Below, one piece after another: positions 23,133 through 56,287 of a stretch of 64,000 bases of DNA. This DNA is from Planctomycetota bacterium (lineage in GTDB: Bacteria; Planctomycetota; PLA2; JAEUHO01). Within the stretch, counting starts at the first letter, position 1; each line of letters begins with the position of its first letter. The notes below the pieces were generated by a model. That model ran no database searches, was not told the DNA's origin, and was given only the letters and a program-made list of their open reading frames with translations. The DNA is taken from positions 1-64,000 of the forward strand of contig CBDCWP010000038.1 in the NCBI GenBank assembly GCA_965223505.1, read 5' to 3'. The translations under genes were made by a program, and so were the position numbers.

Positions 23133-23231
23133 ACGCGGTCCTTGGCCCCGGAAGGGCCAGGGCCACGACGATGGACTCGCTGCGCAGGCTCTGCGGCATG
23201 CGATACTGACCGGACTGACGAGGAGACCGAC

Positions 23232-23984
23232 ATGACGCTTCGTAGCTGCTTGACCAGCCTGATCGTGCTGGCCGCCCTGATCTGCGTCGCTCCCGCGGCA
23301 TTCGCCGAGGACGAGCCCCAGGGCAACGACATCCGCGCCAAGATCAAGGCGCAGATGGAGAAGATCCTGAAGCTGATGAAGGAGAACGAAGACGCTCTCA
23401 TCCAGCTCAGTGCCGGGAGCTCGGCGACGACCCGGAAGGTCGATGTGAAGGTCGACTCGCCCGACGGCGAGTCCGGCACCAGCGCCGGCTCGAAGGAAGA
23501 TCCTTCGTCGAAGGGCGAAGCGGTCGGCAAGAAGCTCGATGAGCTGTTGAAGGCGCACGCCGGCAGCGGCTCGATTCCGCCCGAGCTCGAAGAGCTCGTG
23601 CGCATGATCCCGACCTGAGACAGCTGCGGCGGCCAGTTTGGCGCGCCCAAGGACAAGCCGAGTCAGAGCCAGGGTCAGCAGAACCAGGCCGATCCGCGCG
23701 ACGGTCGGCAGAAGGACGAGGAACTTCGCAAGCAGGGCGAGCAGAACGAGCCGAAGAGCGGCGAGAAGTCGCCGAACGACCCGGCCGAGAAGCCCTACAC
23801 CGCAAAGAAGGAAGATCCGGTCGATCCCAAGGACGCCGAAGCCGCCAAGTGGCAGGGCTGGGCCGCGCAACTTCCGCCGGAAGTGCGCGATGCGATCGAC
23901 GGCGGCAAGCTCGAGCGCATCCCGCTCAAGTACCGCGAGACGGTTCGCAAGTACCTGCTCTGGCTGCAGAAGAACGCGAAGTAG
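23232..23984 (+). CDS. Secreted protein with in-frame TGA (codon 129) in a U-D-S-C motif, candidate selenoprotein, 250 aa
   Basis: SD GAGGAG and signal peptide. The frame stays open for 121 codons after TGA 23616-23618 and ends in the same YLLWLQKNAK as the paralogue. Confidence 0.8.
23628..23647 (+). promoter_or_regulatory. Candidate bacterial SECIS hairpin
   Basis: GGCGGCCA-GUU-UGGC(G)CGCC: 8-bp stem with one bulge, loop starting with GU 17 nt after UGA. Confidence 0.6.
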
Positions 23985-25631: not shown

Positions 25632-25847
25632 CTAGCCTCACCCCTTGCCGCCGCCTCACGAGCCGCCGCTCGGAGCGCCGCCTCCACCCGATGAAGGCGG
25701 AGGAGCGGCGGTGCCGCCACCCGTGCTCGGGGGCGGAGCGGCGCCGGCGCCGCTACCACCCGAACCGGAGCTCGAACGGTTGCCGGTGCAGGCCGCGATG
25801 GATACGACAAGCAAGAGAAGTCCCAACACCGTCAGGGTGCGTCGCAT
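25632..25847 (-). CDS. Small Gly/Ser/Pro-rich lipoprotein: 63 aa if the first TGA (25656-25658) is a stop, 71 aa ending SUGGGKGUG if both TGAs are recoded
   Basis: SD GGAGG 9 nt upstream. MRRTLTVLGLLLLVVSIAA-C lipobox. Own terminator. TGA GGC GGC GGC AAG GGG TGA GGC TAG. Confidence 0.75.
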
Positions 25848-43111: not shown

Positions 43112-44044
43112 GAGGAGGGCACCGCGTGGAGCCCGCGCGAGGACGACGAAGCGGCCTCGACGCGCCCAGCCAACGTGCCGCCTAGTCGTCGTCTTCGTCG
43201 TCCCGGGGCTGCGCCAGCGTGTTGTACGTTCCGCGCGTAGCGGGCGGCGCGTTGGATGGGATGCGGAAGGTCGATGAGGAGGACGACGCGTGGTAGCCCA
43301 CGCGCGGACGACGAAGCGGCCTCGACGCGCCCAGCCAACGTGCCGCCTAGTCGTCGTCTTCGTCGTCCCGGTGCTGCGCCAGCGTGTTGTACGTTCCGCG
43401 CGTAGCGGGCGGCGCGTTGGATGGGATGCGGAAGGTCGATGAGGAGGACGACGCGTGGTAGCCCACGCGAGGACGACGAAGCGGCCTCGACGCGCCCAGC
43501 CAACGTGCCGCCTAGTCGTCGTCCTCGTCGTCCCGGGGCTGCGCCAGCATGTGTACGTTCCGCGCGTAGCGGGCGGCGCGTTGGATGGGATGCGGAAGGT
43601 CGATGAGGAGGACGACGCGTGGTAGCCCACGCGAGGACGACGAAGCGGCCTCGACGCGCCCAGCCAACGTACCGCCTAGTCGTCGTCCTCGTCGTCCCGG
43701 GGCTGCGCCAGCATGTGTACGTTCCGCGCGTAGCGGGCGGCGCGTTGGATGGGATGCGGAAGGTCGATGAGGAGGACGACGCGTGGTAGCCCACGCGAGG
43801 ACGACGAAGCGGCCTCGACGCGCCCAGCCAACGTGCCGCCTAGTAGTCGTCCTCGTCGTCCCGGGGCTGCGCCAGCATGTGTACGTTCCGCGCGTAGCGG
43901 GCGGCGCGTTGGATGGGATGCGGAAGGTCGATGAGGAGGACGACGCGTGGTAGCCCACGCGAGGACGACGAAGCGGCCTCGACGCGCCCAGCCAACGTGC
44001 CGCCTAGTAGTCGTCCTCGTCGTCCCGGGGCTGCGCCAGCATGT
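43112..44044 (-). repeat. 164-165-bp tandem array: five extra copies of the rho 3' end, each with a hairpin element
   Basis: Copies of the rho stop codon at 43182, 43347, 43512, 43676 and 43840; the real stop is at 44004. Confidence 0.95.
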
Positions 44045-52209: not shown

Positions 52210-53648
52210 GCACGCCTCGGCTCATCGTCGGCATGGAGGTGCACCTGCAGCTCAAGACGAAGACGAAGTGCTTCTCCGCGAGCCCGGTGAACTTCGGCGC
52301 CGATCCGAACTCGCTGACGGATCCCGTCGTGCTGGGCCTGCCGGGCGCGCTGCCGGTCCTCAACCGCGAGGCCGTGCGACTGGCCGTGCGCACGGGCTTG
52401 GCGTTGGGGTGCGAGATCGCCGACGTCACGAAGTGGGACCGCAAGAACTACTTCTATCCGGACCTTCCGAAGGGCTACCAGATCAGCCAGTACGACAAGC
52501 CCTTGTGCGTGAACGGCGCGGTCGAGATCGACGACGACGAGGGCAATCCGAAGCAGATCCGCATTCGCCGCGCGCACCTCGAAGAGGACACGGGCAAGTC
52601 GACCCACGACGAAGGCGGCGCGAAGTCGCGGGTGGACCTGAACCGCGCGGGCACGCCGCTGCTCGAGATCGTGTCGGAGCCGGACATCGCTTCGTCGGGC
52701 GAAGCGGCGCGATACCTCGACGCCTTGCGCGAGATCGTCGCGTACGTGGGCACGTCGGACGCCAACATGGAGGAGGGCAACCTGCGCTGCGAGCCGAACA
52801 TCAACCTGGTGTTCGAGAACGGCGACCGCTCCCCCATCGTCGAGGTCAAGAACGTCAACTCGGTGCGCAACGTGGCGAACGCGATCGAGTACGAGATCGT
52901 GCGCCAGACGAAGGCGTACGAGGAGAACGGCGAGACGATCGAGAACACACCGCGCTCGACGCGCGGATGGCACGACGACAACGAAGCGACGGTGCACCAG
53001 CGCTTCAAGGAATCGGAGGACGACTACCGCTACTTCCCGGAGCCCGATCTGCCGCCGCTGCGCATCGCGCGGGACTTCGTGGAGACGGAACGCGCTGCCT
53101 TGCCGGAGCTCGCGCGGGCGCGGCGGGCGCGTTACGAGGCCGAGTATTCACTCTCGACGTACGACGCGGGCGTGTTGACGGCCGATCCGGCGGTGTCGAA
53201 CTGGTTCGAGGCGGTGCTGGACGTCGGTCGCGACCCCAAGGCGGCGGCGAACTGGGTGACGGGCGAGCTGATGCGTCACTTGAACGAGCACAAGCTCTCG
53301 TTGGCGGACGTGAAGCTGGCGCCGGCGGGCCTCGGCGAGCTGATCGACCTGCAGTCGGCTGGCACGATCAACGCGCGGACGGCGAAGGAGCTGTTCCGCG
53401 AGATCGTGTCGACGGGCGAGTCGGCCAAGCAGCTCGTGGACGAGCGCGGGTTGGGGCAGGTCTCGGACACGGATGCGATTCGCGCGGCGTGCGAGGCGGC
53501 GATCGTGGCGCAGCCGGCGGCGGCCCAGGACTTCAAGTCGGGCAACGACAAGGCGATCGGCCGACTCATCGGCGAGACGATGAAGGCGCTCGGCGGCCGC
53601 GGTGACCCGGCGCTGGTGCGCAAGGTTCTGATCGAGCTGTTGCGCTAG
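52206..53648 (+). CDS. gatB: Asp/Glu-tRNA amidotransferase subunit B
   Basis: GMEVHLQL, RKNYFYPDLPKGYQISQ, HLEED, DYRYFPEPDL. Confidence 0.97.
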   Translation: MSTPRLIVGMEVHLQLKTKTKCFSASPVNFGADPNSLTDPVVLGLPGALPVLNREAVRLAVRTGLALGCEIADVTKWDRKNYFYPDLPKGYQISQYDKPLCVNGAVEIDDDEGNPKQIRIRRAHLEEDTGKSTHDEGGAKSRVDLNRAGTPLLEIVSEPDIASSGEAARYLDALREIVAYVGTSDANMEEGNLRCEPNINLVFENGDRSPIVEVKNVNSVRNVANAIEYEIVRQTKAYEENGETIENTPRSTRGWHDDNEATVHQRFKESEDDYRYFPEPDLPPLRIARDFVETERAALPELARARRARYEAEYSLSTYDAGVLTADPAVSNWFEAVLDVGRDPKAAANWVTGELMRHLNEHKLSLADVKLAPAGLGELIDLQSAGTINARTAKELFREIVSTGESAKQLVDERGLGQVSDTDAIRAACEAAIVAQPAAAQDFKSGNDKAIGRLIGETMKALGGRGDPALVRKVLIELLR

Positions 53649-53703
53649 CGGTCCGGTTGCGTGAGTGGGGGGCAGCTCCTCTCCGAGAAAGGCTCGGGGC
53701 TGT

Positions 53704-53721
53704 GCGTCGTGACCACGGCGC
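53704..53721 (-). promoter_or_regulatory. Candidate SECIS hairpin with GGUC loop
   Basis: GCG(C)CGU-GGUC-ACG(A)CGC, loop 18 nt after the UGA at 53733-53735. Confidence 0.5.
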
Positions 53722-53732
53722 CCGCCCTAGCC

Positions 53733-54776
53733 TCAGGCCGGGCCGTTCGGGTCCGGCGGCACCCACTCGTCGGTCTTGCGACGGTAGACGTACACGCTGT
53801 CGCAGTCCGAACACTGGAGTCGCAGTAGGCCGGACTTGTACGTCCCGATCATCACTTCGTGAGTGTCGAGCTTGACCTCGATTCGTCCGTCGCGGATGCG
53901 CCACCTGAAGTCCGCGAGATCACCCTTCGCCGACGGCGCGCGCGGCGGCGGCTCCTCGACGACCGGTTGGGGCGAGCCGCCACACCCTCCGCACGCCGCG
54001 TCCGGCACCTCCGAACCGGTAGGCGGCGCCGGAGCAGCAAGCGGACCGTCGTGCCTGCACTCGCCGTTGTCAAGGAGCGTGATCTGGCGCATGGCGCTGC
54101 TGTTGAAAGCCTTCTGCGCCTGCGTCTCGGGATCCTCAGCGGACGACGCGTAGATCGCGCGCCGCGTCTCGGTTTCGTCGAGCACCCAGATCCCCGCCAG
54201 GTCCGCTTGCGAGATCGTCGGGGCATCGTCGGTGAAGATCAGAATCGCGGCGACGACGGCGGCGAGCACGCCCGTACCCGCAAGGACGAGCTTCTTCGGA
54301 AACGGCGGCGCGGGTGGCGGCGGCGGCGGTGGGAGCGGCTCGACGACGACGCCGGCGGCGTCTTCTTGCGAGGGGTCGGCCGTTCGACGAACCGCTCGCG
54401 CAAGCCGGTCGATGTGCTTCTCGAGATCGCCGTCGAGGGCGTTGAGCCACTGCTTGCGACCCAGGTAGTACGCCAGGCCTTCGGCAGGTTCGACGTCGTC
54501 GATTCGGAACGGAATCACCTTCGACTCGTGCCGCGCCGCCTGGTCGAGCTCTCGCTCGACATGCTGCGACCCATTCGAGAACTTCGAGAACACGAGGACG
54601 AACACCGGCGCGGAGTTGATGCCGCGAACGATCGCCGCCGCAAAGTTCTCGCCCAGTCGCACGTCGCGCGGCGCGATCCAGCACTTCACGTCGCGAGACT
54701 CGAGCCCCGCGCAGATCTGTTCCGCAATCTGCTTGTCCTCGGACCCGTAGCTGATGAACACGTCCCGCTTCGTCAT
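53733..54776 (-). CDS. TIR-domain protein with TM helix and Cys-containing C-terminal domain; may extend to TAG 53727 via UGA recoding
   Basis: DVFISY, CWIAPRD, SQHVERE. Pro-rich linker, TM helix, ACGGCGG and CSDC motifs. Confidence 0.88.
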   Translation of the reverse strand: MTKRDVFISYGSEDKQIAEQICAGLESRDVKCWIAPRDVRLGENFAAAIVRGINSAPVFVLVFSKFSNGSQHVERELDQAARHESKVIPFRIDDVEPAEGLAYYLGRKQWLNALDGDLEKHIDRLARAVRRTADPSQEDAAGVVVEPLPPPPPPPAPPFPKKLVLAGTGVLAAVVAAILIFTDDAPTISQADLAGIWVLDETETRRAIYASSAEDPETQAQKAFNSSAMRQITLLDNGECRHDGPLAAPAPPTGSEVPDAACGGCGGSPQPVVEEPPPRAPSAKGDLADFRWRIRDGRIEVKLDTHEVMIGTYKSGLLRLQCSDCDSVYVYRRKTDEWVPPDPNGPA

Positions 54777-55123
54777 GCCATCTCCAACACGGACACGAAC
54801 TTCGATTGTCTCCGGCGCCGAATCTGTTTTCAACCAGCCCTGTCGAACGGCGCAGTCCTGGGGTCTCAGCTGCGGATCACCACGCACCTAGGCGGAATCG
54901 AGTCCAGTTGCTTTCGCGAATCGCCCTTCGGGCTCGCTACGGCGCGTTCGGCTCGGCCGCTACCGACTCAGCACCGCCGGTCCCCGTATCGACAAGCGGT
55001 ACGACGAACGGTCGCCGACGATGCGTCCCCGCACGTCGGGGTGTCGAAACGATGCCCCCATCTCAACTTGACCATCCTTGTTCGCGTCAACGCGCGCGCC
55101 TACGATTCCTCGCCGGAGGTTGG

Positions 55124-56287
55124 ATGGCGCCGGTGGTTCGATGTGCATTGACGGCACTGTTGATTGGAACGACGCTGCCGCTGACCGCGTGCCACGGTGC
55201 GCGCGTCGTGCACGACCGCACGCCGCCGGCCGTCACCGTCGCGGACGCCGACCCGGACAAACCTGCCCCGCCGTTGAAGTCCGCGTCGCGTCGTTCGAAG
55301 CTCTCGATGTCGAACGCACGACGAGCCCGCTCGACCGGGTGGACGTTCGTCGACACCCCCATCGGACGCGGGTTCTTCACACCGCAAGGTTCGCGCGACG
55401 GCATCGCGTGTACGCCGCTGCACGCGTCCGTCGCGTACCGGCACGAGGAAGTGCTCGACGTCGGGCTCTTCTACAACGTCAATCCGCGCCTCACGGTGGG
55501 ACTCCTCGGGCAGCGCCTGGAACGTCGCCGCAAGGCGCGGGTCGACGGCCAGCTGATCGACCCGACCGACCTGAGCAGCTTCATTCCCGAGGTCACGCTC
55601 GACGAGCGCACGACGTCGCTCTCGTTCGGACCGTTCGCCCAGCTGCTGCTGCGTCGCGAGTGCGGACCGATGCCGGCGATCTACCTCGGCGGCTACGCGC
55701 TCGAGTGGGGCGAGATCACGTCCGCGAGCACGACGATCAGCCGACCGACGCTGGTCCTCGACGCGGCTTCGACCGTCGCGAAGAAGGGGGATCGCGCCGA
55801 TCGGTTCCGGTCCATCTACATCGGTGCCTCGAAACGGGTGCCGGGCTTCCGCCCGAACCGACTCGTGCGCGACATGCGCTTCTACGGCGGCGGCGGCTGG
55901 GGCATGCGCAGCGGGTCGCGGTACACCACCGCCGTCACGGGCAGCGGCGATCCGCGCATCCGGTTCGTGCGCCGCTCGATCACGCGCCACAGCGTCGTGG
56001 GGTGGCTGGGCACGGAAGCGCGGCTGCCGAAGGACTTCTACCTGTACGGCGAGGTCTTCACCGGCGACGAGTGCGACTTCGGATGGGCCGCCGGACTGCG
56101 CTGGCAAAGTCCGTTCGGCGTCAGCTTCAGCATCGGCATCTACGACTGCACGCGACCCATCCAGTCACGCGCGCTGGACCTGGTCTATTTGGAGGGCGGC
56201 GTGGGCTCGCAGCCGTCCCTGGCGACGGGCGGTTCCGGCGGCGCCGGCGGCGGCACGGCCACGCTCGGGCACCTCTGGGGCGACTGA
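55124..56287 (+). CDS. Hypothetical exported protein, possibly an outer-membrane beta-barrel or lipoprotein
   Basis: LTA-C lipobox-like signal. Alternating beta-strand patterns (FYLYGEVF, WAAGLRWQ, FSIGIY). Confidence 0.55.
   Translation: MAPVVRCALTALLIGTTLPLTACHGARVVHDRTPPAVTVADADPDKPAPPLKSASRRSKLSMSNARRARSTGWTFVDTPIGRGFFTPQGSRDGIACTPLHASVAYRHEEVLDVGLFYNVNPRLTVGLLGQRLERRRKARVDGQLIDPTDLSSFIPEVTLDERTTSLSFGPFAQLLLRRECGPMPAIYLGGYALEWGEITSASTTISRPTLVLDAASTVAKKGDRADRFRSIYIGASKRVPGFRPNRLVRDMRFYGGGGWGMRSGSRYTTAVTGSGDPRIRFVRRSITRHSVVGWLGTEARLPKDFYLYGEVFTGDECDFGWAAGLRWQSPFGVSFSIGIYDCTRPIQSRALDLVYLEGGVGSQPSLATGGSGGAGGGTATLGHLWGD

Follow-up and report, generated by a model that had tools for sequence, protein, structure and literature searches.

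Probable ordinary stop at the TGA GGC TAG end of a planctomycete TIR-domain membrane protein gene, in a genome that decodes selenocysteine

The TIR gene and its 3' end

The window, as the term is used here, is the whole 64,000-nucleotide (nt) stretch of DNA from a Planctomycetota bacterium that was analysed, on contig C38 of the assembly (5.15 Mb, 67.5% GC). Its minus strand carries a gene for a protein with a TIR domain, a transmembrane (TM) helix and a cysteine-rich outer domain, and this gene ends in TGA GGC TAG, followed by a small hairpin. A first-pass annotation had suggested that the TGA might be read as a penultimate selenocysteine (Sec, U), with the hairpin acting as a Sec insertion sequence (SECIS) in the geometry of Escherichia coli fdhF. 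Whether this UGA is recoded or is an ordinary stop is the question considered here, and the features on which it turns are the following.

53736..54776, minus strand: coding sequence of the TIR-TM protein (table 11, 347 amino acids; ATG at 54776, last sense codon GCC at 53736-53738)
54402..54761, minus strand: TIR_2 domain, residues 6-125, predicted cytoplasmic (Pfam PF13676 and alignment to PDB 4c7m)
54234..54290, minus strand: single predicted TM helix, residues ~163-181 (Kyte-Doolittle hydropathy; preceded by a Pro-rich linker and KK)
53736..54221, minus strand: orphan outer domain, residues 186-347, with the Pro-rich tail PPDPNGPA (Cys 240, 262, 265, 322 and 325, with CGGC and CSDC pairs)
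53727..53735, minus strand: TGA GGC TAG, to be read as Sec-Gly-stop or as a stop codon with a second stop in tandem by chance (nonamer present only six times in the genome)
53697..53724, minus strand: interrupted hairpin, its apical part GCGCCGU-GGUC-ACGACGC at 53704-53721 extended by outer GGGC/GCCC pairs (minimum free energy structure)
54805..54833, minus strand: sigma-70-like promoter match TTGAAA-17-GACAAT upstream of the TIR gene (consensus match only; 1 found against 0.1 expected in shuffles)

The layout of TIR domain, TM helix and outer domain, already proposed in the first pass, is borne out by the match to TIR_2 (76.7 bits against a cut-off of 28, E = 2.7e-21, profile positions 1-121 of 122; 79.4 bits in the genome-level profile search) and by a hydropathy peak of 2.7 at residue 163 (Kyte-Doolittle, 19-residue window). 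The HVERE motif, pointed out earlier for its glutamate, lies at residues 72-76, and its Glu 75 (HVERELD) falls opposite the ARELD glutamate of the Brucella TIR structure 4c7m, presumably the catalytic residue of NAD cleavage (NADase activity). Beyond the helix, ACGGCGG at residue 261, CSDC at 322 and one further Cys at 240 are found as annotated. It could be argued that the frame is decaying or mis-called, and its ending meaningless: the outer domain is without relatives in the searches described below, and no TIR gene lies within 2.5 kb after gatB in three close Planctomycetota relatives compared by synteny. This is highly improbable, however: the TIR_2 match runs the full length of the profile (121 of 122 positions), GC content by codon position is what the genome's genes usually show (0.81 at third positions, GC3, with first positions above second), a Shine-Dalgarno-like GGAG stands 8-11 nt 5' of the ATG with the promoter-like match 29 nt further up, and the stretch is identical in contigs of four sequencing runs from two studies. 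No RNA run is listed among those that carry the stretch, and, being identical across the four runs, it offers no strain variation to read.

The ending itself also stands as first described. After the GCC codon, the minus strand reads TGA (53733-53735), GGC (53730-53732) and TAG (53727-53729) and then GGCGGGCGCCGTGGTCACGACGCACAG, which gives the stem GCGCCGU/ACGACGC, with six pairs and one C.A mismatch, and a GGUC loop that starts 18 nt after the UGA. Read with TGA as Sec, the product would have 349 amino acids and end in ...RRKTDEWVPPDPNGPAUG. The 45-nt fold at this 3' end reaches -20.7 kcal/mol (z = -1.42), with 19 of 200 shuffles folding equally well, and the apical hairpin amounts to -4.6 kcal/mol. 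Searches of Rfam matched neither a SECIS nor any other family, whether at the site with E values up to 10 or across the whole window at gathering scores.

Two known systems resemble this ending in part. In E. coli K-12 fdhF, GGTC likewise starts 18 nt after the in-frame TGA, so the spacing cited in the first pass is correct, but there the element is part of the coding sequence. The upper stem of the fdhF SECIS carries a bulged U, where the TIR stem has a C.A mismatch instead. The C-terminal arm of mammalian thioredoxin reductase is flexible and has Sec as its penultimate residue with Gly behind it, as in the candidate TIR tail; the enzyme's terminus is Gly-Cys-Sec-Gly, the adjacent Cys forms a selenenylsulfide with Sec, and the eukaryotic SECIS lies far downstream. 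The residues before the candidate Sec of the TIR protein, in contrast, are Gly-Pro-Ala, and the Cys nearest to this position (348) is residue 325, 23 residues upstream, with none within 22.

Selenocysteine decoding and the probable Sec-Gly-stop lipoproteins

A lack of Sec machinery had been named in the first pass as a ground for rejecting recoding, but tRNA-Sec (69.2 bits), selA (507.2 bits), selB (335.7 bits) and selD (338.1 bits) are all present in the genome, so recoding is not refuted on this ground. The selD gene has an in-frame TGA of its own, in GAGG-U-AAK. A genome scan returned 200 candidates with an in-frame TGA and coding-type GC on both sides, 30 of which were chosen by redox motif. 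Since at least two of these 30 (C9-54258 and C10-17049) look like gene boundaries and not Sec sites, counts were repeated on 19 robust sites, consisting of SelD and the 18 of 31 tested sites that, on read-through, sit in a Pfam domain match spanning the TGA. The families represented are AhpC-TSA/Redoxin, Thioredoxin_7, PMSR, CMD, deiodinase-like, DUF3179, FG-GAP and an OxyR-like LysR regulator. When a stem of at least 5 perfect pairs, or of at least 6 pairs with one mismatch, is accepted, a hairpin with a loop beginning GU or GGU is found 14-28 nt after the UGA at 14 of the 19 robust sites; the loop begins GGUC at six of them, and GGUC is a native SECIS loop of this genome. Formate dehydrogenase alpha (TIGR01553) gave no match over cut-off and no internal stop.

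Several genes with an in-frame TGA are recorded here in their own right. The OxyR-like LysR regulator (L135; G000:C33:14172-15131, minus strand) has its TGA in LLLLEDGH-U-LRDQ, spanned by matches to HTH_1 and LysR_substrate and followed at 28 nt by a 7-bp GGUC hairpin; this would put Sec at what is presumably the place of the peroxide-sensing Cys. The others are a deiodinase-like protein with EF-hands (L117; G000:C24:62476-63852; SYT-U-QPF), a DUF3179 protein (L112; C12:90290-92386), an FG-GAP repeat protein (L132; C44:245733-247079; VW-U-C) and an HMA-domain protein in which U-VV-C precedes an ordinary CGGC metal site (L122; C33:25832-26527). On the plus strand of the window, 23133-23984 encodes a secreted low-complexity protein without a Pfam match, with an in-frame TGA in ...RMIPT-U-DSCGGQF... 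(a UxxC motif) and a short hairpin, GCCA-GUU-UGGC; a paralogous gene adjoins it. Across 2875 proxy genes of the genome, TAG is the commonest stop despite 67% GC (TAG 1539, TGA 1166, TAA 170), perhaps in connection with the frequent reading of UGA as Sec.

The nonamer TGAGGCTAG occurs six times in the genome: at the ends of three small lipoprotein genes, at the end of the TIR gene, and twice after frames without coding-type GC3. One of the three lipoproteins is that of the window (25632-25847, minus strand), whose TGA GGC TAG ending had been reported in the first pass and is confirmed; the other two lie on contigs C20 (L036) and C40 (L037). Their tails read ...SCGGGKG-U-G, ...SCGGAEGS-U-G and ...S-U-GGGKG-U-G, an upstream TGA of the window copy replacing the Cys of its paralogues. 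A 7-bp stem comes after each of them (GCCGGCU/AGCCGGC, GCCGCGC/GCGCGGC and GAGACCC/GGGUCUC), its sequence varying while the pairing is kept, with a GU-bearing loop 20-24 nt after the UGA. Across the 29 family genomes, 25 sites fit the pattern TGAGGNTAG-N(9-19)-GGTC, against 55 in the reversed control (summed per-genome controls). The 25 are nine lipoproteins of this class, one lipoprotein ending in ...STCFT-U-G, the TIR gene, and 14 unrelated sites, mostly with GGG, one of which (L062, found in a relative on a non-gene frame rich in Arg) closes a hairpin of six pairs and one mismatch.

The class was followed further with R2, a covariance model built from ten class 3' ends; an earlier model from three sequences (R1) was over-fitted to sequence and used only for realigning, and two MAFFT alignments (A1, A2) were dropped for gaps inside the stem. 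At E <= 0.05, R2 picks out 36 sites, often as tandem copies, spread over 18 of the 40 genomes searched from the order. The tail set drawn from these matches kept only sites with seven perfect pairs, so that stem quality in it is set by construction; a Cys or an in-frame TGA stands 2-9 residues before the last TGA in 27 of 28 distinct class tails. The class (window 25632-25847, L036, L037, L039, L044, L045, L049, L054, L055, L057, L059 and L075-L104) ends in [C/U]GGG(G)K(G/A)-TGA-GGC-TAG, with the variants ...TCFT-U-G, ...DCAT-U-G and ...GGT-U-R, and its strong hairpins in the 3' untranslated region (3' UTR) carry a GU-containing loop (including GGUC, GUC, GUU and CGUGU) 16-25 nt after the UGA. 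No Pfam or NCBIfam model matches these lipoproteins. Related in sequence is a stretch in L074 (G000:C8:85447-85485, plus strand) that scores 25.2 bits to the lipoprotein 3' element and reads ...CAAGGGGCTAG... without a TGA; it may be a decayed copy.

A precedent for a hairpin placed after the true stop is found in the SaoC (CC-COOH) lipoproteins, which, like the KCU-star selenoproteins, have Sec at or next to the C-terminus; SaoC genes end in C-UGA-UAG, followed by a hairpin with a 7-bp stem and a GGU loop (Haft and Gwadz 2022, bioRxiv 10.1101/2022.07.06.499078). In homologues, the place of the SaoC UGA is taken by a Cys of the CC pair that is invariant apart from this replacement, whereas no such homologue evidence was found for the TIR gene. 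Judged by comparison across genomes, this lineage very probably does decode Sec-Gly-stop endings with a SECIS in the 3' UTR, and the class probably constitutes an undescribed family of Sec-Gly-terminal selenoproteins.

The TIR ending compared with the class and with chance

The TIR protein shares with these lipoproteins the TGA GGC TAG ending, the GU-containing loop and a predicted extracytoplasmic flexible tail. It differs from them in build, since class members begin with a lipobox-bearing signal peptide and continue as a short mature chain of low complexity, whereas the N-terminus of the TIR protein is the TIR domain, with no signal or lipobox; it also has neither a strong stem nor a Cys or Sec at a distance of 2-9 residues ahead of the final Sec. 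Its apical hairpin, at -4.6 kcal/mol, lies outside the range of all ten class members measured, which were not selected on stem strength (-9.9 to -16.2 kcal/mol), and beside chance hairpins after TAG stops (median -5.4 kcal/mol) and that of L062 (-4.0 kcal/mol). It is also weaker than 12 of the 14 robust in-frame elements. With R2, the TIR site scores 16.8 bits, 1-4 bits above bare nonamers (15.8 and 12.7), against 29.4, 29.2 and 27.6 for held-out members and 19.7 for L062, although the model also carries family-specific sequence and is thereby biased against outsiders. Among the 150 first-look candidates scored, the TIR site is absent from the own-genome R2 hits at E <= 10, and none of the other ten TIR_2 genes of the genome has a TGA-GGC-TAG-plus-hairpin ending. 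Altogether, the TIR site is without every hallmark of the lineage's Sec-Gly habit except the nonamer and the loop letters.

Background frequencies point both ways. An initial hairpin definition (seven positions, at most one mismatch, any G-bearing loop) was uninformative, with 68% of TGA and 71% of TAG stops passing. GGUC-loop hairpins of TIR quality follow 6 of 1538 TAG stops and occur at 0.34% of random positions; after TGA stops they number 5 of 1166, three of which are really in-frame Sec sites, with no excess over TAG stops. A second stop, one codon further on, is seen at 9 of 1166 TGA stops compared with 15 of 1539 TAG stops, which is background. In the genome-wide counts proposed in the first pass, neither the hairpin alone nor the TGA-codon-stop arrangement exceeds background, while the conjunction of the two is rare. 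Over the 29 genomes, weak-hairpin look-alikes number two, the TIR site and L062, where about 0.5-0.7 are expected by arithmetic, a figure compatible with chance.

The favoured interpretation, to which a probability of about 0.65 may be given, is that the UGA of the TIR gene acts as an ordinary stop and the protein has 347 amino acids. The GGC-TAG and the weak GGUC hairpin would then be a coincidence in the 78-nt GC-rich spacer between the TIR gene and gatB, which converges on it and ends at 53648; the hairpin may contribute to stability or termination at the mRNA 3' end, and a terminator scan of 53300-55300 found no intrinsic terminator with a T-run. Several observations weigh against this interpretation. 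The organism decodes Sec, and UGA-GGC-UAG with a 3'-UTR hairpin is very probably used in three of its own lipoprotein genes. GGUC at 18 nt falls within the 16-28 nt range of real elements, and two of the 14 robust in-frame SECIS hairpins are as weak as that of the TIR gene or weaker (-3.3 and -2.5 kcal/mol). The TIR tail is predicted to lie outside the cytoplasm, as are the class tails. Stop-GGN-stop occurs once among the 2875 proxy genes, at the TIR gene, and TGA-GGN-stop with a GGUC hairpin is expected by chance, by arithmetic, about 0.006 times per genome at gene ends and about 0.03 times in any context.

The alternative that these observations favour is full or partial recoding of the UGA as Sec by SelB acting on the 3'-UTR hairpin, which would give a 349-residue protein with an extracytoplasmic Sec-Gly on a flexible Pro-rich tail. 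It is considered unlikely, yet is retained, because the organism has both the tools and the habit. Complete machinery with at least 19 robust Sec sites speaks for it, as do the same ending and hairpin in the three lipoproteins, the 36 model hits across the order, the alternation of the upstream TGA with Cys, a loop and spacing that match both the genome's own elements and fdhF, the rarity of the conjunction and the SaoC precedent. Stopping at the UGA would still yield an almost complete protein, so a weak SECIS would cost little, and the ending could be a young recoding site of low efficiency. Against it stand the weak, mismatched stem, the low R2 score, the lack of a Cys or Sec partner near the candidate position, an outer domain for which no homologues were found, and hence neither a Cys/Sec pair nor evidence of conservation, the ordinary endings of the other TIR_2 genes, and an equally good look-alike (L062) on a non-gene frame. 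The first-pass proposal that the TIR protein uses Sec thus keeps its premises, namely machinery, a very probable Sec-Gly-stop class and the GGUC loop, but not the hairpin strength, model score or nearby partner that would single out this gene.

The TIR protein, its relatives and its possible role

Whole-protein searching with phmmer gave 24,037 hits at E <= 0.001 with the layout of N-terminal TIR, TM helix and variable C-terminus; among the matches listed only the TIR part was covered, and weaker matches to the outer domain could rank below. Residues 186-347 had no relative in 5.8 billion clustered proteins, nor in the genome_contigs or metagenome_contigs collections, and a homologue search of 28 family genomes returned low-complexity matches only. 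In the ESM Atlas, the best scores for the outer domain were 0.88-0.89, under the guide value of 0.9, so that a lipocalin-like cluster (0.88) serves as a lead only. Single-sequence AlphaFold2 prediction with Cys in place of Sec reached a mean predicted local distance difference test (pLDDT) of 37.4 and a predicted template modelling score of 0.29, too low for the model to place residue 348 relative to the Cys pairs.

Like other bacterial proteins of the N-terminal TIR_2 - TM - variable kind, the TIR protein has the FISY...CWIAPRD...VxRE...IPFRIDDV motifs, a Pro-rich linker and one TM helix, but its outer domain is unrelated to any found, whereas SnoaL-like, TPR or other regions are present in the examples inspected. 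Among solved structures, the nearest in sequence is the TIR domain of Brucella TcpB/BtpA (4c7m, 4lzp; E = 0.0041), with Glu 75 of VERELD on the Glu of ARELD; TcpB, however, is a soluble secreted effector of a pathogen, the TIR protein of the window is membrane-anchored with an outer domain, and 78 residues align. No full-length protein match was found to the known TIR anti-phage systems (Thoeris ThsB, TIR-SAVED, retron-TIR and Pycsar TIR); PADLOC gave partial TIR-domain matches over about 80 residues (PDC-S66, 3.6e-8; ThsB, 2.3e-4), and NCBIfam gave 27 bits against a cut-off of 600. The neighbours of the gene are gatCAB and lipoprotein genes, and no anti-phage partner genes were seen among them, in a comparison that included no search aimed at partner families. 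The GatB of the window is 70-77% identical to that of three metagenome-assembled genomes labelled "Planctomycetota bacterium". Elsewhere in the window, at 43455-43953 on the plus strand, a unit of about 164 nt is repeated three times head to tail, seen as three near-identical open reading frames of 56 amino acids.

The TIR protein belongs to the large, uncharacterised group with N-terminal TIR, TM helix and variable ectodomain, and its outer domain is an orphan rich in Cys. It is predicted to span the membrane once, with the N-terminal TIR_2 domain in the cytoplasm and, beyond the TM helix, an outer domain specific to the lineage. The TIR_2 domain is probably a signalling module that cleaves NAD or oligomerises, and the outer domain probably senses something outside the cytoplasm and activates the TIR domain by clustering. 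Sensing of redox state or metals, and a role in defence, as put forward in the first pass, are inference only. Were the UGA recoded, the selenol might form a switch reactive to redox state, electrophiles or metals, perhaps pairing with the CGGC or CSDC Cys and coupling outside chemistry to the TIR domain, a mechanism that must be regarded as doubtful. On a fuller account, thought rather improbable, the protein would be the first TIR-domain selenoprotein, receptor-like, with a Sec-Gly outer tail made through a minimal post-stop SECIS, its site perhaps young and copied in kind from the Sec-Gly lipoproteins, and a selenol sensor would gate the cytoplasmic TIR (NADase) output. Among the matches listed by a full-text literature search, none linked Sec to a TIR protein of bacteria, and all dealt with animals or humans.

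Recoding of the UGA as Sec would connect a TIR module of immunity or signalling with extracellular selenium redox chemistry. If the codon is a plain stop, the gene becomes a calibration case, in that a textbook-looking ending, TGA GGC TAG with GGUC at the fdhF distance, can arise beside genuine ones in a Sec-rich, GC-rich genome, and real and chance Sec endings are told apart by stem strength, a nearby Cys or Sec partner, and conservation. For the lineage itself, the analysis points to a sizeable, apparently unmodelled class of Sec-Gly lipoproteins, from which gene callers cut off two or more residues.

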